DNA of 59,996 nt, filler included. It is 7 parts of 7 records of this genome, joined end to end, with 100 filler letters (N's around TTAATTAATTAA, not from the genome) between each part and the next. Parts side by side here need not be neighbours in the genome. Positions count along the whole stretch, not along the records: positions 8,618 to 14,409 come from SRR31156797_66069; 6 more parts are not named here. The stretch is one strand, 5' to 3'. The position numbers were made by a program, and so were the translations under genes. Under the pieces are notes generated by a model. That model did not search any database. It was not told the DNA's origin and saw only the letters and a program-made list of their open reading frames with translations. Of this stretch, positions 7,897 to 17,608 are shown piece after piece (within the stretch, counting starts at the first letter, position 1; each line of letters starts with the position of its first letter).

Positions 7897-8426
7897 TGGG
7901 AAAACCTGGTTACGATGCCGTCCCAGAGCCCCTTGGCCTTGAGGGCATCTTCACAAATTTGACGGACCGCTCCCTCTCCGCCCCGCTGGGGAGTGATGAT
8001 CCGGGCGGTTTCTTTGACCTCCTGGGAGGCGTCGGCAACGGTGATGGCAAGTCCCACCCGCTTCATGACACAGAGGTCGGGAAGGTCGTCTCCCGCAAAG
8101 GCGGTTTCCCCGGCCGTAATCCCGGTTTGCCCAAGGATGGTTTCAAGGGCCGAGACCTTATCCTTGATGCCGTCAAAGAGCAGGTCGATACCGAGATTGT
8201 TGCATCTTGCCTCAAGGGCCTTGGAACTACGGCCGGTGATGATCCCGACCCGGACGCCCGCATCCATGAGCAGTCGCAGGCCGAGGCCGTCTTTGACGCT
8301 GAAGCTTTTTATCTCGTCCCCCTGGTCGGTGTAGGTGATGGTGCCGCTGGTAAGGACACCGTCCACATCGAGGAGGAGGAGCTTCAGGGTCTTTAATTTT
8401 TCCTGAACTTCGGTTGAATGGGTCAT
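7893..8426 (-). CDS. kdsC: KDO-8-phosphate phosphatase (HAD)
   Basis: LLDVDGVLT, KDGLG, GDDLPD, GGEGAVR. Confidence 0.96.
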   Translation of the reverse strand: MTHSTEVQEKLKTLKLLLLDVDGVLTSGTITYTDQGDEIKSFSVKDGLGLRLLMDAGVRVGIITGRSSKALEARCNNLGIDLLFDGIKDKVSALETILGQTGITAGETAFAGDDLPDLCVMKRVGLAITVADASQEVKETARIITPQRGGEGAVRQICEDALKAKGLWDGIVTRFSQ

Positions 8427-8617: not shown

Positions 8618-8775
8618 GTTGTGAAAAATAGGCGGTGGATTTGGGTTTCTGTAGATTTATTGCTTTTTTGTATTTTATTTTGTAGCGTAGAAACTATTCA
8701 CTAAAAAATGATCATCTTTTCTGATTAATGCAAAGATGGTTAAGCCAACAATTATCTTAACTACGGGTGCTTATT

Positions 8776-11700
8776 ATGGCAATTAAACCCACGTATGAGG
8801 AATTAGAGAAACGAATCCAGGATTTGGAAAACGAAATTTCTCTATCCCACAAAGAGTATGATTCGTGGAGACAAGAATCTAAGTACGGAGCAATATTCAA
8901 TCAATCATTCCAATTTGCTTTGGTTTTGGATTCGAACGGTATCGTCATAGAGATGAATGAGCTGTGTCGGGTGGTATGCGGCCCATACGCAGAAAATGTG
9001 ATTGGGGGGCACTTTAGTGAGGCTGGTTGGTGGAAGGAGTTTGATGAGGTAAAAGAAAAAACCGATAAAGCAATATCTCAGACGCTTGAAGGTGAAGTAG
9101 TACGTGACGAGGTATTCTTTATCGATAAAGGCAAAAACGTCAGGCATGGCACTCGTATTTTTTCTCCGATTAAAAATGTTATAGGTGAGATAATAATGAT
9201 ATCTGTCGTTGGCCTTGATATATCAGATATTAAAGCGGTGAGCGAAAGACTCACCAAATCCAACCAAAGATTAGAGCAGGCACATAAGATAGCAAGGATC
9301 GGTCATTGGGATTGGGAAATGTCGACAGGAGAATTGACTTGGTCAGATGAAATTTTTGATATATTTGGACGAGACAAAGACAGTTTTAAGCCAACTACAG
9401 AATCCTTTGAGGCTTGCATACATCCTGATGATTATCGAGATTTTATAAATGAAAGAGAAGCTGCTTTGGCGGCAAATAGATCGGTTGACATTGAACACCG
9501 TATCAGCCTACCAAATGGTACGATTCGGTATGTTCAGGAACTGGCAGAGGTTTTCAGGGATAACGAAGGAAAGGTCATCAGGGTATTAGGAACTGTACAG
9601 GATATCACTGAGCGTAAACTGGCAGAATTGTCATTACGAAAATCAGAAGAAAAATATAGAACCCTTTTTGAGGGTATGGCGCAAGGCGTTTTTTATCAAA
9701 ATTGTGATGGACAACTAATTGATTTTAACAAGAAAACATTGGAAATATTTGGACTTACCAAAGATCAGTTATTAGGTAGAACTTCTCTTGATCCGACTTG
9801 GAAGGTGATAAATCAGGATGGCTCCGACTTACCGGGCGATCAACATCCCTCAATGGTTGCTCTTAGGACGGGCAAGCCAGTTTTAGATGCAATTGCTGGA
9901 GTATTTAATACTATTAAAAAAGAATATGTTTGGATCAATATAAATGCTATTCCACAATTCCGCATTGGTGAAGTAGAGCCTTATCAGGTTTTTGTATCAA
10001 TGCATGATATATCGGATCTCAAACAGTCAGAGGATACTCTTCGACAGAGTGAAGCCCTTATGGAAAGTGTGTTCCGGGCAGCCCCGACTGGTATCGGAGT
10101 TGTAGGTGACCGGGCAATTAAAGCGGTAAATGATACATTCTGCAATATGTTAGGATATAGCAGAGAAGAGTTGATTGGTCAAAGGTCGACAATTGTTTAT
10201 CCATCAATTGAAGAGTTTGAAAAGGTTGGTCAGGAAAAGTATGAACAAATAAAGGAAAAAGGTACAGGAACGGTTGAAACCATTTTCAAACGTAAGGATG
10301 GAAATACAATTGATGTTATATTGAGTTCGACACCCATCGATATAAATGACCTAAGCAAAGGTGTCACGTTTACAGCGCTTGATATCTCAAAGAAAAAGAA
10401 AGCGGAAAGCTCACTGATAAAAGCTCATAAGCTTTTTTTAACAGTACTTAACGGTATTGATTCAACCGTGTATGTGGCTGATATGGAAACTTATGAAATC
10501 CTTTTCATGAATAATAGTATGATTGAGAGTTTTGGTGAGGATTACACAGGTGAAAAATGTTGGAAAGTCTTCAGAAGAAAATCAGGGCCTTGTTCATTCT
10601 GCAGCAATTGCAAATTGATTGACAATAATGGTAATCCTACAGGTGTACATACCTGGCACGATGAGAATCCGATTACCGGAAAATGGTATATTAACCATGA
10701 TCGTGCAATCGAATGGATAGACGGGAGAGTGGTACGCCTGCAGATAGCAACCGATATCTCAGAGATAAAAAAAATGGAGCAACAGCTGCTTCAGGCCCAA
10801 AAAATGGAGTCAGTAGGTAGACTTGCAGGAGGGATTGCTCACGATTTTAATAACATGCTTAGTATTATCCTCGGCAATGTAGAAATTATTATAGATGACA
10901 TTGAGACCTCAAGTCCCTTGGTTAGCAATCTCGAGGAAGTCCAGAAAGCCGCAAAACGATCTGCGGATTTAACCCGACAGCTTTTAGCGTTTGCCAGAAA
11001 ACAGACAATTGCCCCCAAAATTCTTAATTTAAATGAAACGATTGATGGTATGCTTAAAATGCTGAGGCGGTTAATCGGTGAGGACATCGGACTGCTTTGG
11101 CAGCCTGGAAATAATGTGTGGCCGGTGAGGGTTGACCCCAGCCAGATAGACCAGATTCTGGCCAACCTATGCGTCAACGCCCGAGACGCTATAGCAGATG
11201 TGGGTAAAGTCATCATCGAAACGAGCAACACTGAATTCGACGAGACTTACTGCAGCGATCACCCGGGCTTTTTACCTGGTGAGTTTGTGCTTTTGGCTGT
11301 TAGCGACAACGGTTGCGGCATGGATATCAAGACTCTTGAAAACATTTATGAGCCTTTTTATACAACCAAAAAGCTCGGTGAGGGGACTGGCCTGGGGCTT
11401 TCCACGGTATATGGTGTAGTCAAACAAAACAATGGTTTTATCAATGCGTATAGCGAACCAGGTCAAGGGACGACATTCAACTTATACTTTCCGCGATATA
11501 AGACCAAGGCGGGCACTTCGCCGGAAAAGGAAAAGGACCACCCGATCGAGCGCGGCCATGAAACGATATTTCTGGTTGAGGATGAAGTTCCGATTTTGAG
11601 GATGACGGAACAGATGCTTGAAAGACTGGGTTATCAGGTAGTATCAGCCAGAACACCAGGCGAAGCAATTCGCCTGGCACAAGAATATGAAGACGAGATT

Positions 11701-11925
11701 CATCTGCTCATGACCGATGTTGTTATGCCGGAAATGAATGGGCGGGATTTGGCAAAAAATATTCTGTCTATACACCCTGATCTCAAACGCCTGTTCATGT
11801 CGGGCTATACTGCAAACGTTATTGCCCATCATGGTGTTTTGGATGCAGGCGTGAACTTTATCCAGAAGCCGTTTTCCAGGGAGGAACTTGGCAAAAAGGT
11901 GCGCGAGGCGTTGGATATGGATTAA
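8776..11925 (+). CDS. Multi-PAS hybrid sensor histidine kinase / receiver
   Basis: N-terminal KPTYEELEKRIQDLE coil, several PAS/PAC repeats, H-box GRLAGGIAHDFNN, GTGLGL G2 box, receiver TDVVMPEMNG. Confidence 0.95.
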   Translation: MAIKPTYEELEKRIQDLENEISLSHKEYDSWRQESKYGAIFNQSFQFALVLDSNGIVIEMNELCRVVCGPYAENVIGGHFSEAGWWKEFDEVKEKTDKAISQTLEGEVVRDEVFFIDKGKNVRHGTRIFSPIKNVIGEIIMISVVGLDISDIKAVSERLTKSNQRLEQAHKIARIGHWDWEMSTGELTWSDEIFDIFGRDKDSFKPTTESFEACIHPDDYRDFINEREAALAANRSVDIEHRISLPNGTIRYVQELAEVFRDNEGKVIRVLGTVQDITERKLAELSLRKSEEKYRTLFEGMAQGVFYQNCDGQLIDFNKKTLEIFGLTKDQLLGRTSLDPTWKVINQDGSDLPGDQHPSMVALRTGKPVLDAIAGVFNTIKKEYVWININAIPQFRIGEVEPYQVFVSMHDISDLKQSEDTLRQSEALMESVFRAAPTGIGVVGDRAIKAVNDTFCNMLGYSREELIGQRSTIVYPSIEEFEKVGQEKYEQIKEKGTGTVETIFKRKDGNTIDVILSSTPIDINDLSKGVTFTALDISKKKKAESSLIKAHKLFLTVLNGIDSTVYVADMETYEILFMNNSMIESFGEDYTGEKCWKVFRRKSGPCSFCSNCKLIDNNGNPTGVHTWHDENPITGKWYINHDRAIEWIDGRVVRLQIATDISEIKKMEQQLLQAQKMESVGRLAGGIAHDFNNMLSIILGNVEIIIDDIETSSPLVSNLEEVQKAAKRSADLTRQLLAFARKQTIAPKILNLNETIDGMLKMLRRLIGEDIGLLWQPGNNVWPVRVDPSQIDQILANLCVNARDAIADVGKVIIETSNTEFDETYCSDHPGFLPGEFVLLAVSDNGCGMDIKTLENIYEPFYTTKKLGEGTGLGLSTVYGVVKQNNGFINAYSEPGQGTTFNLYFPRYKTKAGTSPEKEKDHPIERGHETIFLVEDEVPILRMTEQMLERLGYQVVSARTPGEAIRLAQEYEDEIHLLMTDVVMPEMNGRDLAKNILSIHPDLKRLFMSGYTANVIAHHGVLDAGVNFIQKPFSREELGKKVREALDMD

Positions 11926-12376
11926 TTGTACATTTGTGCTTTAGATAACGTTCTCATTGATGATATTTTCTAAACATAAAGAGGAAAGAATTTGAGGAAA
12001 ATTCGACCCAGCACTATGTCTATCATTCCGGGATAGCCTCGTCTTCCAGTCCCCGATGGCTTCCATCAGTATTGTTGCGAACCAGGAAATCCTTATTAGG
12101 CAACACTTTTTTAAGTAAGGCTCACCCAATTGAATTGGCCTGATCGTATTGTCGTATCAGCATTTAACACCACCAGCAATATCCATCAACCATCAACCTC
12201 AAGCCAGTATCTGCCATCAAATTGTCTCATTGATAAATTAAAACCCATAATCCTCAAAACCCTTTCTATTCAAGCTTTATCCTCCCCGAAGTTCATAAAT
12301 CCATCCAGGTATTAATGTAACCTTTCTTAAATACAGAGGGACATTTTTCCCGAATTTTAATCACCAGGAGGATTTT

Positions 12377-12613
12377 ATGAAAAAATCATTGAGTATCAGT
12401 GATGCAAGCCAGGAGACCGGCCTTTCCCAGAAACAATTGAGATCCTATGAGGCACGGGGATACATATCTGAGCCGTTCAAGGTCAGGTGTGGAGAAATTG
12501 CCTACAGGCGATATACCCCCCAGCACATAGCCGAAATCAAAGCATTCAAGCGTTTCGTGGACGAGGGGTTCACCCTTCAGGCTGCATCAAGAAAAATAAA
12601 GGAGAAAGTTTAA
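12377..12613 (+). CDS. Stand-alone MerR-type HTH protein (regulator or excisionase-like)
   Basis: SISDASQETGLSQKQLRSYEARG...YRRYT...GFTL; RBS AGGAGG upstream; no effector domain. Confidence 0.85.
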   Translation: MKKSLSISDASQETGLSQKQLRSYEARGYISEPFKVRCGEIAYRRYTPQHIAEIKAFKRFVDEGFTLQAASRKIKEKV

Positions 12614-12615
12614 CT

Positions 12616-12819
12616 ATGGCACGTTTAGATAACACCCAGTGCCCATTTATCAAGAAGGATTGTCTGCAGGCCAAGTGCAGCCTCTATGACAGCCGCCTTG
12701 ATAACTGTGCATTTCATCTGGTCATTTACAATTTATATAAGCTGGACAGAGCGATATCCAAGCTCCAGCCGAAAGATGAACCAGATCAACCAGGGAAATT
12801 CCCGTTTAATACGAATTAA
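12616..12819 (+). CDS. Small Cys4 protein, putative Zn-binding
   Basis: CPF-x4-C-x4-C-x9-C; RBS GGAG inside the MerR 3' end. Confidence 0.7.
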   Translation: MARLDNTQCPFIKKDCLQAKCSLYDSRLDNCAFHLVIYNLYKLDRAISKLQPKDEPDQPGKFPFNTN

Positions 12820-12827
12820 AAAAGAGT

Positions 12828-12849
12828 GCCTGCCCTCAAAGGGCGGGCA
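12828..12849. terminator. GC-rich hairpin flanked by A-runs (terminator-like on minus strand)
   Basis: GCCTGCCCT-CAA-AGGGCGGGC, with AAAAAAGAGT before and GAAAAAA after. Confidence 0.5.
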
Positions 12850-12859
12850 TGAAAAAACT

Positions 12860-12939
12860 ATGGGTGGTAGCTCCTTAATTGGGGGAATGACTTCCGGTTT
12901 CATTCTCCCTGCCCATTATCAACCGGAGGCAATAAAATT
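12860..12939 (+). promoter_or_regulatory. Structured 5' leader: hairpin whose loop is complementary to the Shine-Dalgarno region (predicted pseudoknot)
   Basis: Stem GGGGGAATGA (12881-90) / TCATTCTCCC (12900-09). Loop CTTCCGGTT (12891-99) pairs 9/9 (one G-U) with AACCGGAGG (12921-29), which contains the SD 10 nt before ATG 12940. Confidence 0.6.
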
Positions 12940-14409
12940 ATGTTCATACCGCGTTACAGAAAATCAAATCATATCAACGTTCATTTAACCACCACGGATA
13001 CCGATACCCAGAACCTAATCGACGAAATTTTGGACGAGATTTCCGACATCAAGAAAATAACCGAAAGGCCCAAAGCCAGAGAAGCTTTGAAAAAAGTACT
13101 TTTGAACCTCATTCATGCGGATGAAATTGGGGGTTGTATTCGTATTTCCAGGGATAGAAACAACTATTCTCACCACCGCATGTATGGCAAGCTCTGGCTC
13201 AAACATAAATGGTTTATCGAAATTGCCGTTGATGGCCTCATTGAACTTGGCTATGCCGAGTATTTGAACGGCTCTTGGGACAAAGAAAAAAAACGTGGCT
13301 ATCAATCTAAAATCTGGGCTTCTGACAAACTTCATTCCCGGATACTGGGGATAATTACGCCCAGCAAAGGCAAAGCAATAGATCGCGCTGAGCCAGAACA
13401 GGTCATTCAGTTAAAGGATAGTAGTAAAAAATTAGTTCGTTACACTCCAACAAGATCCATTACATTAACAAAAAAACGTCTGACACAATACAATGAATTC
13501 ATCCGGGACCAATACATCACGGTAAATCTCACCGAGTCCGTACAGACGGATAATGAGTTCTGGTGCAACAATTTACTGAACGGACTGCTGAATGGAAGCT
13601 ATACACTGGATGGGTTGAAACTAAATCAAGAACTCAACATCACAGACACTGAGAGCAGACACTACCATATCGTGTACATTCATCCAGAAAGGAGCACTCA
13701 TCCAAGAAGTACTCATGTTCAATGTAACATCACCAGTTCTTCATCTATCACCACCAGTACCAATACACCAGCACCTCCATCATCATCCATCAGTACCACA
13801 ACCAGCACTACTTCATCCACCTCCAACACCAGTACCCATACACCTACATCATATACCACCATCACACATAACTCTACATCCACCAGTACTCTTCTCTCAC
13901 ATATAAAGAACCTAATACATCTATACAGTACTCAGACGAATCAGCCAAAACCATTGACAGATAAGGCTCTTATGGTTTCAGAGAATAAGCTCATAGAATA
14001 CTTTTTGAACTGGTTATTGTTCCTGAATCATGAATTGAAGATAGGGAAAAGTGATGATCAAGTTAAATGGGCGTACCGCATCAGAGGTGGTCTTGGAAAG
14101 CAAGGGATCTCAGAATTGATTTTTAGGCTGAAATATGAAGCTTGCCACAGGGTTTTCAATAAATCTTCTTTCAAGAATGGTGGCCGATTTTATGGTGCTT
14201 CCCACCTTGACATCCCAAGCCACATGCGTGGATTTATCCGCATCAATGGTGAGCCTGTTGTTGAGCTTGATTACGATGCCCTTCATGTGGTCATGCTTTA
14301 CCATCTCCGGGGCATTGACATTGATTTAGCCCAGGACCCTTACGATATGATTGTTGGCCAGGAAGACCGCTCAATCAAGAAAATAGCCTTGCTCACGGCC
14401 ATCAATGCC
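12940..14409 (+). CDS. Divergent PolA/T7-RNAP superfamily polymerase-like protein of mobile elements; 3' truncated
   Basis: RVFN..SF..GGRFYG...IP...R..IRINGEPVVELDYDALH (motif A-like) ...DPY...R..KK...LTAINA (motif B-like); large Ser/Thr-rich internal insert; motif C is beyond the contig end. Confidence 0.6.
13731..13931 (+). repeat. G-depleted tract with degenerate CACCAGYAC direct repeats inside the polymerase-like gene
   Basis: Exact CACCAGTAC at 13752, 13827, 13881; variants at 13731, 13766, 13788, 13800, ~13924. Only 7 G in 13731-13907, all within CAG(T/C). Confidence 0.75.
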
Positions 14410-14509
14410 NNNNNNNNNNNNNNNNNNNNNNNNNNNNNNNNNNNNNNNNNNNNTTAATTAATTAANNNNNNNNNNNNNNNNNNNNNNNNNNNNNNNNNNN
14501 NNNNNNNNN
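14410..14509. other. Artificial contig spacer
   Basis: N linker with TTAATTAATTAA. Confidence 0.99.
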
Positions 14510-14510
14510 C

Positions 14511-15893
14511 TATGGCCTGGACAAAAAAGGCGAAGAAAAGATCGCCGTGTTCGACCTTGGCGGCGGCACCTTCGACGTATCGGTACTCGAGATCGGTGAC
14601 GGCGTATTCGAGGTAAAATCAACCAACGGCGACACCCATCTGGGCGGCGAGGACTTCGACCTTAGAATCATCGACTACATTGCCGAAGAGTTCAAGAAAG
14701 ACCAGGGCATCGACATCAAGACAGACAAGATGGCCCTCCAGCGCCTGAAAGAGGCGGCCGAAAAGGCAAAAATGGAGCTCTCCACAGCGGTTGAGACCGA
14801 CATCAACCTGCCCTTCATCACGGCAGACGCAAGCGGCCCCAAACATCTTGACGTGAAGCTCACCCGGGCAAAACTGGAATCCCTTGTGGCCGATCTGCTG
14901 GACAACCTTGAGAACCCCTGCAGAACCGCCATGAAAGATGCGGGCCTCTCTGCGGGCGAGATCAACGAGGTGGTTCTTGTTGGCGGCATGACCCGTATGC
15001 CGGCCGTCCAGGAGCGCGTGGAGAAAATCTTCGGCAAAAAACCCCATAAGGGCGTAAACCCGGACGAGGTGGTTGCCATGGGCGCCGCCATCCAGGCCGG
15101 CGTACTCCAGGGCGATGTCAACGATGTACTTCTCCTTGACGTGACCCCCCTCTCCCTGGGTATCGAGACCCTGGGCGGGGTCATGACACGGCTGATCGAG
15201 AAGAACACCACCATCCCCACCAAGAAGAGCCAGGTGTTCTCAACCGCGGCAGACAACCAGCCCGCCGTATCCATCCACGTCCTCCAGGGCGAGCGAGAGA
15301 TGGCCGCCGGCAACAAGACCCTTGGCCAGTTCGAGCTGTCCGACATCCCGGCGGCACCCAGGGGCGTACCCCAGATCGAGGTCACCTTTGACATCGATGC
15401 CAACGGTATCGTCCATGTAGCGGCCAAGGACAAGGCCACCGGCAAGGAGCAGTCTATCCGCATCACAGCGGCAAGCGGTCTTTCCGAGGACGAAATCGAG
15501 CAGATGGTCAAGGATGCGGAAATGCATGCCGACGAGGACAAGAAAAAACGAGAGCTTGTGGACGCAAAGAACACCGCCGAGTCCCTCATCGACCAGACGG
15601 AGAAGACCCTGAAGGAGCACGGAGACAAGGTTGACGATGCCACCAAGAAAGGCATCGAGGCCGCCTGCGAGGCCCTGAAGCAGGTCAAGGACGGCGAGGA
15701 TGCCGAGGCGATCAAGCAGAAGAGCGAAGAGCTGACCCAGGCCTCCCACAAACTGGCCGAGGCCATGTACCAGCAGGCTGCCCAGGAGGGCGGAGCCCCC
15801 GGCGCCGGCCCCGAGGGCCAGGCAGGTCCCGCCGGCCAGGATGACGATGTGGTCGATGCTGATTTCGAAGAGGTCAATGAGACCAAGAAATAA
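14511..15893 (+). CDS. dnaK: Chaperone DnaK, 5' truncated
   Basis: [44 protein letters not shown]-terminal VVDADFEEV. Confidence 0.99.
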
Positions 15894-15910
15894 AAAATAA
15901 AACCGCCTTG

Positions 15911-15955
15911 AAAAAAAATCCCACTGTGCACTATACTGCCCAGTGGGATTTTTTT
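15911..15955 (+). terminator. Rho-independent terminator after dnaK (bidirectional-type)
   Basis: AAAAAAAATCCCACTG...CAGTGGGATTTTTTT. Confidence 0.85.
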
Positions 15956-16018
15956 ATATCGGGCATACCGTTAACCTTAAAAACAAAAGCGCAACCGCTT
16001 GGGGGCTGGATGTAGAGA

Positions 16019-17608
16019 ATGATAATAACTGAGATTTTAGCAAGAAACAGCCGGAGATACGGGAACGAGATCGCCCTGATCGAACGGGCGCCTGCCGAGG
16101 ATCTTCGCCAGGAGATCACCTGGATGGAATTTTACCAGGAGTCCAACCGCCTGGCCAATGCCCTTGAACGACGGGGCATCAAAAAAGGGGACCGGGTGAT
16201 CCAGCTCATGACCAATTGCATTGAGTGGCTTCCCATCTATTTCGGCATCCTGAGCACCGGCGCCTGGGCCGTGCCCCTGAACTTCAGGTTTGAATTCGAC
16301 AAGATCCGGCTCTGCACCGAGGTTGCCGAAGCAAAGGTGTTTATCTTTGGCGAGGAGTTCATCGACAGGATCGAAACGGGCAAGGTCTTCCTCGACGCCC
16401 ATGTGAGCCTCTGGATATTCACGGGCCCCCCGGAAAACTGCCCGGACTGGGCCGTTCCCTACCGGGAGTTTATCCGGTCCGAAAGCGGGGAAGCCCCGCC
16501 GGATGTGCCACTTTCCATCGAAGAAGACGCCGCCCTCTACTTTACCTCCGGCACCACCGGCACCCCGAAGGCCGTACTCCTGACCCATAGAAACCTGGAA
16601 CACGCCTGTTATGTGGAGAACCGCCACCACAGCCAGAGCCGAGACGACACCTTTCTGTGCATCCCGCCCCTCTACCACACCGGCGCAAAAATGCACTGGC
16701 TGGGCAGTTTTGTGGTAGGAGGCAAGTGCGTCATTCTCAAGGGGGTCAAGCCGAAATGGATACTGGAGGCCGTGTCCGAAGAGCTTGCCACCATTGTCTG
16801 GCTCCTGGTGCCCTGGGCCCATGACATCCTCATCGCCATCGAGGGGGGGAGCGTGGATATTTCCAAATACCGGCTCGACCAGTGGCGCCTGATGCACATC
16901 GGCGCCCAGCCCGTGCCCCCGAGCCTGATCAACGAGTGGAAACAGTATTTCCCCGGCCATGCCTACGACACCAACTACGGCCTCACCGAGACCACGGGGC
17001 CCGGCTGCGTTCACCTGGGTGTTGAAAACCCGGACCATGTGGGTGCCATCGGCCAGCCCGGATTTGACTGGGAGTGCAAGATCGTGGACGCAAGCGGCAA
17101 CGAGCTACCCGGCTGCGAAAGCGGGGAACTCATCGTCCGGGGTCCCGGAGTGATGAAAGAGTACTACAAGAACCCGGAAGCCACGGCAAAGACCATCATA
17201 GACGGCTGGCTCCACACCGGCGACATCGCCCGCTACGACCGGTCCGGCTTCATCTGGCTGGTGGACCGGAAAAAGGACGTGATCATCTGCGGGGGCGAGA
17301 ACATCTTCCCGGTGGAGATCGAGCACTTCTACATGCAGCACAAAAAGATCCAGGATGTGGCCGTGATCGGCATTCCGGACGAACGCCTGGGGGAGATCCC
17401 GGCCGGCATCTTTGCCGCCAAGGACGGCTGCGAACTCACAAAAAAGGAGATCGTCGAGTTTGGCGAGGCCCTTCCCCGGTACAAGCGGCTCAGGAAAATC
17501 ATTTTCGGCGAGGTGCCGAGAAACCCCACCGGCAAGATCGAAAAACCCAAGCTAAGACGGCTCTACGCCAAGGACAAGAGGAAAGACATTGCAAAGCTTC
17601 TCAAATAG
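16019..17608 (+). CDS. Class I adenylate-forming enzyme (acyl-CoA synthetase)
   Basis: YFTSGTTGTPK, YGLTE, GWLHTGD, PRNPTGKIEK. Confidence 0.95.
   Translation: MIITEILARNSRRYGNEIALIERAPAEDLRQEITWMEFYQESNRLANALERRGIKKGDRVIQLMTNCIEWLPIYFGILSTGAWAVPLNFRFEFDKIRLCTEVAEAKVFIFGEEFIDRIETGKVFLDAHVSLWIFTGPPENCPDWAVPYREFIRSESGEAPPDVPLSIEEDAALYFTSGTTGTPKAVLLTHRNLEHACYVENRHHSQSRDDTFLCIPPLYHTGAKMHWLGSFVVGGKCVILKGVKPKWILEAVSEELATIVWLLVPWAHDILIAIEGGSVDISKYRLDQWRLMHIGAQPVPPSLINEWKQYFPGHAYDTNYGLTETTGPGCVHLGVENPDHVGAIGQPGFDWECKIVDASGNELPGCESGELIVRGPGVMKEYYKNPEATAKTIIDGWLHTGDIARYDRSGFIWLVDRKKDVIICGGENIFPVEIEHFYMQHKKIQDVAVIGIPDERLGEIPAGIFAAKDGCELTKKEIVEFGEALPRYKRLRKIIFGEVPRNPTGKIEKPKLRRLYAKDKRKDIAKLLK

Follow-up and report, generated by a model that had tools for sequence, protein, structure and literature searches.

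The stretch of DNA analysed here (the window, 59,996 nucleotides) consists of seven contigs joined by runs of 44 N around a TTAATTAATTAA spacer and is not one genome stretch. At the end of its second contig, three genes on the same strand encode a small MerR-like protein, a small protein with four conserved cysteines (the Cys4 protein) and a long protein resembling the polymerases of the DNA polymerase I (Pol I or PolA)/T7 RNA polymerase (RNAP) superfamily, which is the main subject of this work (Table 1). The original prediction, made from the letters alone, had placed three co-oriented genes on an AT-rich contig, had listed polymerase-like motifs in the long open reading frame (ORF) and had reported that catalytic motif C is lost at a contig break. 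All of these observations were reproduced. The three genes lie where they had been placed, and the GC content of the contig is 41.8% compared to 50.6-57.5% for the other six contigs, i.e. 9-16 points lower. The motifs HRVFN (residues 403-407), GGRFYG (414-419), VELDYDALH (441-449), DPYD (466-469), RSIKK (477-481) and the terminal AINA are all found in the translated frame, which stays open until the N run begins at 14410. As the window is made of contigs joined by N runs, the frame breaks off at a contig end (14409). The three ORFs are not chance frames, because the long one has 54 relatives and the MerR-like and Cys4 genes recur in order, with invariant cysteines.

Table 1. Features of the window; positions count along its whole length
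Feature	Position	Strand	Size	Basis
N runs, start positions	8518, 14410, 20457, 26114, 40078, 51793
Contig of interest, second of seven	8618-14409		5,792 bp
Hybrid histidine kinase with several PAS domains, HisKA, HATPase_c and a receiver domain	8767-11925	+	1,052 aa	Pfam
Conserved non-coding leader before the MerR-like gene	12241-12376	+		blastn and five-sequence alignment
MerR-like ORF	12377-12613	+	78 aa	Pfam MerR_1, E 3.4e-14
Cys4 ORF	12616-12819	+	67 aa	No family model; four invariant Cys
Polymerase-like ORF, open at the last contig base	12940-14409	+	490 codons	ORF map
N-terminal alpha/beta domain of the polymerase-like protein, about residues 1-200	12940-13540	+		Alignment A2 and model
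Ser/Thr/Pro-rich low-complexity linker inside the clade-specific insertion, between N-terminal domain and core	13732-13890	+		Composition
Beginning of the catalytic core, with hairpin (R-VFN, GGRFYG), motif A (VELDYDALH), fingers Asp (DPY) and motif B (RSIKK...LxxxN)	14146-14409	+		Motif positions

A word-indexed search, in which 8,000 candidates were scored, returned the 54 relatives of the 490-residue frame at E <= 1e-3, the best of them with 82% identity. The close relatives are 577-673 aa long and align over all 490 residues with 57-82% identity; one of them is a named hypothetical protein of Desulfobacter postgatei (P0006, 596 aa). They run for about 110-130 residues beyond the terminal AINA of the window protein and contain there the conserved stretches H-x2-I, G-x2-LQNxDS and PVHDSF, the last of which is the HD(S)-type motif C that had been predicted to lie past the break. 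Judged from these alignments, the window frame covers 490 codons from the start of a gene that would have about 600-620, and is cut after motif B. Neither Pfam nor NCBIfam has a model for the protein, and the family therefore goes unannotated in genomes; no Pfam match was obtained for the window protein at E <= 1. Eight relatives were scanned in the same way and none matched DNA_pol_A, seven being without any domain and one (P0034) having a HIRAN domain only. The window protein did match PHROG 4756, a phage protein family without assigned function, at E 1.5e-28, and the full-length relatives matched it along the whole profile at E 2e-56 to 1.5e-51. A literature search gave no paper that names this subfamily.

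The structural check first suggested for the polymerase assignment was run on the relative P0006, for which an AlphaFold2 model was built from an alignment of 28 sequences (alignment A1). The model had a mean predicted local distance difference test score (pLDDT) of 83 and a predicted template-modelling score of 0.80, and only residues 235-292 and 310-322 were disordered. When the PDB was searched with Foldseek, 42 matches had E <= 1e-3; the best reached E 4.6e-5 with a probability of 1.0, and among the matches listed all were family-A DNA polymerases (Plasmodium apicoplast polymerase, Taq/KlenTaq, Klenow and Bst) or the yeast mitochondrial RNAP. The TM-scores of these matches are low (0.2-0.37), as expected for a partial match of a multi-domain protein. 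Among the predicted viral structures of BFVD, the best matches were uncharacterised proteins of 400-450 aa from Aeromonas, Rheinheimera and other phages (E 6e-22 to 1e-12), which cover both domains, followed by phage PolA and T7-like RNAPs. By its predicted fold, the long protein thus belongs to the PolA/T7 RNAP superfamily.

The N-terminal domain is common to the whole family, including the phage forms of 400-450 aa (alignment A2). Modelled alone, it has an alpha/beta fold with three to four strands (pLDDT 76.5) and no PDB match at E <= 1e-3, which, together with the Pfam result, agrees with the earlier observation that the protein has no exonuclease domain. Its top PDB matches are weak (E 0.1-0.8) and mostly winged-helix proteins (Fur, MarR, PerR, SlyA and DnaD-N); as a lead only, the domain is possibly a winged-helix DNA binder. 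In the clade of the window protein, a long helical and Ser/Thr-rich insertion separates the N-terminal domain from the core, whereas the short members of the family are without it. Serine, threonine and proline make up 62.5% of residues 246-325 of the window protein. The linker formed by this stretch varies in length among the near relatives and is absent in the short members, and the equivalent stretch of P0006 has a pLDDT below 50.

Conservation of the active site was counted in 195 family proteins (the 54 first matches and the 141 next best cluster representatives) aligned to the A1 profile, with residues numbered as in P0006. The Asp of motif A (D422) is kept in 193 of the 195 proteins and that of motif C (D550) in 191. 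Two arginines ahead of the palm, R382 and R394, are kept in 192 proteins each, the other three being gaps, and lie at a hairpin formed by the model strands 381-384 and 392-396. The fingers Asp D444 is kept in 181 proteins, and R455 and K459 of the RxxxK motif in 188 and 192, respectively. The remaining entries at these residues are nearly all gaps in truncated sequences, and the pattern is the one that would be expected of an active enzyme. D422 is visible in the window protein as D445, the second palm Asp lies past the contig end, and all family-invariant residues within reach are intact. As a variation on motif C, the sequence is (V/I)YDS instead of VHDS at the loci L005, L006 and L007 (alignment A2, columns 806-812), and 10 of the 195 proteins have Phe or Tyr in place of its His.

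The nucleotide pocket differs from that of both relatives. At the steric-gate position, five residues past the motif A Asp, Klenow has Glu710 and T7 RNAP has Gly542, whereas the family has His in 192 of the 195 proteins. In the O-helix, the residue four past the Lys is Phe762 in Klenow, Met635 in T7 RNAP and Leu here (167/195), and the residue eight past the Lys is Tyr766 in Klenow, Tyr639 in T7 RNAP and Asn here (191/195). The register of motif A was taken from hhalign, and that of motif B was deduced from the RxxxK spacing. The sequence does not reveal whether the substrate is NTP or dNTP, because the pocket is unlike either relative and motif C resembles that of T7 RNAP.

This likeness raises the alternative that the protein is a single-subunit DNA-dependent RNA polymerase, transcribing the genes of an element or phage from its own promoters. 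Its HDSF motif C is found as IHDSFGT in T7 RNAP, unlike the VHDELVF of Pol I, and its conserved Gln lies 26 residues from the motif C Asp as in T7 RNAP, compared to 33 in Klenow. The steric-gate Glu of Klenow is not kept either, but the O-helix Tyr needed by both T7 RNAP and Pol I is an Asn. Phages carry one to three copies of the gene; however, the proteins have, at 400-600 aa, no counterpart of the promoter-recognition loop or the N-terminal domain of T7 RNAP, a comparison for which no direct test was made, and elements of 5-10 kb with small regulators of host type would have little need for a private transcriptase. An RNA polymerase is also named in matches to phrog_2051 ('RNA polymerase', E 0.006) and in the automatic name of one look-alike cluster of the Atlas ('DNA-directed RNA polymerase family protein'), yet such names and matches are weak. 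At two loci (L022 and L043), moreover, the polymerase gene is immediately preceded by a gene for a DnaB_C-like or AAA_25 helicase-like protein. We consider a dedicated transcriptase unlikely.

The family is large and widespread. All 1.84 billion cluster representatives (clusters at 50% identity) were searched with the profile; 11,003 proteins passed the cut-off of E <= 1e-3, and of these 8,537 had E <= 1e-10 and 4,951 had E <= 1e-30. By tblastn, it was found at 260 places in 229 of 50,697 phage records and in 3 of 72,556 plasmid records. The phages are mostly 85-145 kb long and infect Rheinheimera, Vibrio and Aeromonas, and some have two or three copies. In Aeromonas phage 2L372X (MK813938.1, 10377-11642), the gene is located among small hypothetical genes, outside any annotated replication module. 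A pattern scan of species-representative genomes gave 47 loci, whose hosts include Desulfobacterota, Alphaproteobacteria, Ignavibacteria, Lentisphaerota, Bdellovibrionota, one metagenome-assembled genome (MAG) of Clostridia and one of Nanoarchaeota. The genome of Desulfobacter curvatus has six matches, two of them full-length, and that of a Desulfogranum has three matches from at least two copies. Two D. curvatus loci (L003 and L009) are on contigs of about 1.2 kb, and several tiny contigs have a common identical end of 91 nt. These features suggest that multi-copy elements break the D. curvatus assembly inside the polymerase gene.

The ORFs within 5 kb of the gene were clustered by BLASTP for 39 of the 47 loci; the loci dropped (L003, L009, L011, L027, L036, L037, L046 and L047) are mostly short contigs or short matches with little flanking sequence. 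The largest neighbour cluster, present at 19 of the 39 loci, consists of tyrosine recombinases, and all four members tested matched Phage_integrase in Pfam. A cluster of serine recombinases is present at five loci, with both of the members tested confirmed by Pfam, and one more was confirmed in L005; for most recombinases, the assignment is that of the cluster rather than of a Pfam test of the single protein. A tRNA or tmRNA gene was found within 170 nt of the recombinase gene at 12 of the 17 loci scanned. In Azospirillum tabaci W712 (L021), a perfect direct repeat of 62 nt (8000-8061 and 16915-16976, 8,915 bp apart) covers the 3' part of tRNA-Arg(CCG). The two copies bracket the polymerase gene, the recombinase gene and an ABC-3C-type defence pair (a CTD9 protein and an AAA/SMC protein), and the unit is a bounded integrated element of 8,915 bp. 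Recombinases at tRNA or tmRNA genes, the att repeats of this one element, multiple copies and carriage by phages bear out the mobile context that had been proposed for the gene, and the survey did not place its homologs in fixed core-genome contexts. A separate arrangement was seen at L008, where two polymerase-family genes, at 9908-11656 (+) and 15770-17449 (-), lie 4 kb apart with a tRNA-Leu gene and a DUF6538-type integrase gene between them; this looks like two adjoining elements at one tRNA gene.

Some of these neighbourhoods would also fit a role in defence or anti-defence. The product of the polymerase would then be a signalling or decoy nucleic acid, comparable to that of defence reverse transcriptases, and the enzyme would not replicate the element. 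At L001, the three genes lie between a Type I restriction-modification (R-M) system upstream and GmrSD and a SMODS nucleotidyltransferase downstream, with a short Phage_integrase ORF 8 kb away. The ArdC-like and RadC genes upstream at L001 and the DUF932 gene at L048 are typical of anti-restriction leading regions, and the L021 element has its ABC-3C genes. The defence genes, however, vary from locus to locus as cargo does, and the constant partner of the family is a recombinase at a tRNA gene and not any one defence gene. On the evidence of the gene neighbourhoods, a defence function of the polymerase itself is judged quite unlikely.

The order MerR-Cys4-polymerase was found in the window and at six related loci (L001, L012 and L048-L051), so that the small helix-turn-helix (HTH) gene noted upstream of the polymerase gene is a recurrent feature. 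The nucleotide homology of the window to L048, L049 and L051, the nearest three loci with upstream sequence, begins at 12241 in all three cases, 136 nt before the start of the MerR-like gene (blastn). Upstream of this point, the relatives have in common ArdC-like, DUF932 and small zinc-ribbon-like proteins, to which L001 adds DUF2958, RadC and a stand-alone HIRAN protein. ArdC, RadC, DUF932, DUF2958 and HIRAN are typical company in regions that enter a recipient first, as single-stranded DNA. With such neighbours, in a defence-rich island, the setting of the clade resembles an integrative or conjugative island more than it does a phage satellite, and the satellite-like character originally ascribed to the element was not borne out. 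The site 3' of the polymerase gene varies. It consists of 79 nt at L053 (1193-1271), of about 620 non-coding nt at L048 (4578-5196) and of a 401-aa ORF without a family at L050 (2639-3844), and is followed at all three loci by the same conserved 221-aa ORF, also without a family.

The histidine kinase gene upstream of the three genes had been suggested as possible cargo of the element. It is absent from all related loci and is an ordinary gene, with 46-61 paralogs in each of four Desulfobacterales genomes, the best of which has 66% identity across the C-terminal 60%. The cargo proposal therefore finds no support, all the more as the homology starts only at 12241. More probably, the kinase gene belongs to the flanking host DNA or spans a junction made by recombination or assembly. 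A search for kinase orthologs that might define an empty site returned only the large paralog family, and no empty site could be defined.

The MerR-like protein matches MerR_1 with its residues 6-76 on positions 2-68 of the 69 of the model, and its nearest solved relative is the DNA-binding domain of CueR (residues 2-64, E 3.7e-8). The HTH and wing are present, and the protein stops at residue 78, so that the effector-binding region of the MerR family is absent. Its description as a MerR-type HTH protein without a sensor domain was therefore correct, and by sequence it is a MerR-type DNA-binding domain only. Orthologs occupy the equal position at the six related loci. The protein is most likely an operon regulator or a factor that marks a site. 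The leader in front of its gene, whose conservation extends to L001, contains a GGAGG ribosome-binding site. In the alignment, an imperfect dyad (AATGT..CT / AG..ACATT) was seen by eye near 12314-12345; it is kept in L048, L049 and L051 and partly in L001. It was not recovered by a repeat search, and it is a candidate operator.

The Cys4 gene starts 2 nt past the stop codon of the MerR-like gene. The window copy has C9, P10, C17, C22 and C32, followed by a helix-like LxxxNLYKL stretch. Among the six homologs, the four cysteines and the proline are invariant, and the LxxxNLxxL stretch is invariant as well, in spite of an overall identity that falls to 25%. No family was found for the protein in Pfam, PHROGs or NCBIfam, and no match among PDB sequences. 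Identity with the 'C3RHD' cysteine domain named in PMC2579912 was considered and dropped. The Cys4 protein, which is translationally coupled to the MerR-like one, may act as an accessory factor that binds zinc. A complex prediction for the polymerase of L048 (619 aa) and its Cys4 neighbour (67 aa) gave a score of 0.00 in two runs made without own alignments; the fold of the partner was uncertain, and the result weighs neither way. At the more distant loci L002 (2930-3109), L040 (2028-2276) and L045 (5051-5401), a different small cysteine-rich protein (YCxxC ... C-x4-CP-[LF]) is encoded just upstream of the polymerase, and its C-x4-C-[PS]-L-Y stretch resembles the window Cys4 protein. The gene call of the relative P0001 has 66 extra upstream residues that correspond to an overlapping frame of the window spacer between the Cys4 and polymerase genes (12686-12988). 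This indicates that the spacer is conserved as DNA; the extension itself is probably an artefact of gene calling.

No Rfam match was found on the contig at E <= 0.1. The tRNA scan of 8618-14409 found no tRNA, the promoter and terminator scans of the contig were no better than those of shuffled sequences, and a search around 12241 found no convincing att-like repeat. The low GC content of the contig, kinase gene included, and the affinity of the nearest relatives to Desulfobacter may reflect another organism than the rest of the bin, or a foreign island.

The same features bear on the possibility that the window copy is a dead remnant, or an artefact of assembly or binning, without function in this organism. 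The contig ends inside the gene, its GC content sets it apart from the other six contigs, its upstream context is unlike that of all relatives with a sharp break of homology at 12241, and several of the relatives are themselves incomplete, on contigs of about 1 kb. The end of a contig does not amount to a mutation, however. All 490 codons are open, the family-invariant residues that can be reached are intact, and the two upstream genes are intact and conserved. We regard a dead or artefactual copy as very unlikely; taken alone, the window copy is an ordinary, cut-short member of a known but almost unstudied polymerase family.

The reading that we favour, and hold to be probable, is that the protein is a stand-alone, exonuclease-less polymerase of the Pol I/T7 RNAP superfamily, of the kind of the Transposon-Virus polymerases (TV-Pols; Iyer, Abhiman and Aravind 2008, Biol Direct 3:39, PMC2579912), which initiates synthesis on the DNA of its own element as a primase or primase-polymerase. 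The enzyme would have three parts, i.e. the N-terminal alpha/beta domain, the clade-specific helical and Ser/Thr-rich insertion and a minimal core of fingers and palm. It would start nucleic-acid synthesis, presumably independently of a primer, after excision of the element or on DNA that arrives single-stranded by transfer. The enzyme would be either a primase, whose DNA or RNA product is extended by the host replisome, or a short-range primase-polymerase, and the copy would be finished by host enzymes. The helicase-like genes adjoining the polymerase gene at L022 and L043 tie the family to replication, and CcPol-MP, an assayed dNTP primase listed among the TV-Pols, is a precedent. For the clade of the window, the company of ArdC, RadC, DUF932, DUF2958 and HIRAN would suggest a variant in which the complementary strand is primed after transfer. 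The locus had originally been read as the replication module of a satellite-like element, perhaps with the kinase as cargo. The polymerase superfamily, the mobile context and the HTH front end of that reading stand, whereas the kinase cargo and the satellite type do not.

Several results weigh against a TV-Pol-like initiator. At the sequence level, the family profile searched against PDB sequences found no polymerase, only a chance match to a palmitoyl thioesterase (E 1.1), and hhalign was non-significant over 26 columns each against E. coli Pol I (E 0.29) and T7 RNAP (E 0.081). It nonetheless pairs the motif A segment ELDYDALHVVMLYH with ADYSQIELRIMAHL around Klenow D705, setting ELDYDALH on ADYSQIELR, and in motif C sets PVHDSFIV on LIHDSFGT of T7 RNAP. 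The window copy is without motif C and everything downstream of it, and its intactness there is judged from relatives with 81-82% identity. No recombinase, helicase or att site is present on the window contig. The prediction that TV-Pols are primases rests on their association with D5-type helicases (PMC2579912), and no D5-type helicase was found in any neighbourhood examined; a search for longer fused forms (1044-2980 aa) also found none, which is weak evidence. Microcystis phage LMM01 (Ma-LMM01) carries a TV-Pol element (PMC2579912), but the A1 profile gave no candidate in the whole Ma-LMM01 record, in a search run with no positive control. Ma-LMM01 being the one named member compared, a direct sequence link to a named TV-Pol was not obtained. 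According to PMC7581432, no TV-Pol except CcPol had been characterised, and the present subfamily has no known assayed member. The activity of CcPol is not transferable, because its E710 and F762 are His and Leu here and the O-helix Tyr is Asn.

A more far-reaching proposal, which we put forward as doubtful, is that the subfamily is a third functional type within the Pol I/T7 RNAP superfamily, a site-specific initiator polymerase that is placed at an origin-like site by its own N-terminal DNA-binding domain. The His/Asn pocket might then allow de novo starts with substrates or a fidelity unlike those of either relative, and in the clade of the window the MerR-like protein and the Cys4 protein, as a zinc protein, might complete a self-contained three-protein initiation module. 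The interest of the locus rests mainly on the size of the unannotated family and on the unusual invariant His and Asn in its nucleotide pocket. CcPol-MP of SCCmec is the one TV-Pol-type polymerase known to have been assayed, against a branch of 11,003 clusters found in tRNA-targeting elements, defence-rich islands and 229 phages. The way in which these enzymes start synthesis, once known, would explain how many small integrating elements are copied although no primase or replicase can be recognised in them. The His and Asn, at positions that govern the choice of sugar and the stacking of the template in Pol I and T7 RNAP, are a cheap and well-defined target for biochemistry.

Among known systems, PHROG 4756 is the same family, represented in Vibrio, Aeromonas and Rheinheimera phages; its members, of about 440 aa, are without the clade-specific insertion and have no annotation. 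The T7 and mitochondrial RNAPs share with the family the right-hand fold, the yeast mitochondrial enzyme being among the top Foldseek matches, and T7 RNAP in addition shares the HDSF motif C and the spacing from Gln to Asp. T7-like and mitochondrial RNAPs also prime DNA replication (PMC2579912). T7 RNAP differs, however, in its length of 883 aa compared to 400-600 aa here and in having a Tyr639 whose equivalent is Asn, and no Pfam RNA_pol match was obtained for the family.

CcPol-MP of SCCmec, which is listed among the TV-Pols, is an assayed dNTP primase (PMC7581432) and the only PolA-type enzyme known to act as a primase in an assay. Like the protein described here, it and the PolA-SSB (single-stranded DNA-binding protein) primases of Bacillota are exonuclease-poor family-A polymerases on integrating elements (PMC7581432, PMC10061031), encoded beside a small protein without a known family and near site-specific recombinases. 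CcPol keeps E710 and F762 of Pol I, where the present family has His and Leu, with Asn at Y766. Its partner MP is an OB-fold SSB encoded downstream, whereas the small partner here is the Cys4 protein, encoded upstream. CcPol-MP is also without a zinc-binding domain, and CcPol without the N-terminal domain.

TV-Pols are defined by a minimal core without a nuclease, a hairpin Arg, two Asp, a fingers Asp with RxxxK and an optional N-terminal domain, and occur near integrases, resolvases or transposases, in regions rich in R-M operons, or are linked or fused to D5-like helicases (PMC2579912). No D5-like helicase was found near or fused to the polymerase at the loci examined here. The TV-PolN domain is predicted to be all-helical and is also encoded as a stand-alone neighbour gene (PMC2579912), whereas the N-terminal domain here is modelled as alpha/beta. 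The thumb of TV-Pols consists of two antiparallel coiled-coil helices; this region has only about 25 residues in the short members of the present family and is replaced by the long insertion in the clade of the window, where the model has helices at 296-309, 326-345 and 350-357 before the core. The defining features themselves were found. The Foldseek and Pfam searches indicate a minimal PolA/T7 RNAP core without a nuclease domain, and the invariant hairpin Arg (R382 and R394, either of which may be the published one), the two palm Asp (D422 and D550) and the fingers Asp with RxxxK, in the window DPYD and RSIKK, are all present. An extra N-terminal domain occurs as in a subset of TV-Pols. The distribution in Desulfobacterota, Alphaproteobacteria and phages is also common to both, as is the neighbourhood of lambda-type integrases or resolvases within regions where R-M operons abound. 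By these published features, and leaving aside a sequence link to a named member, the protein is of the TV-Pol kind and not a PolA-SSB primase of the CcPol-MP type, and TV-Pol, as proposed at the outset, is its closest known family.

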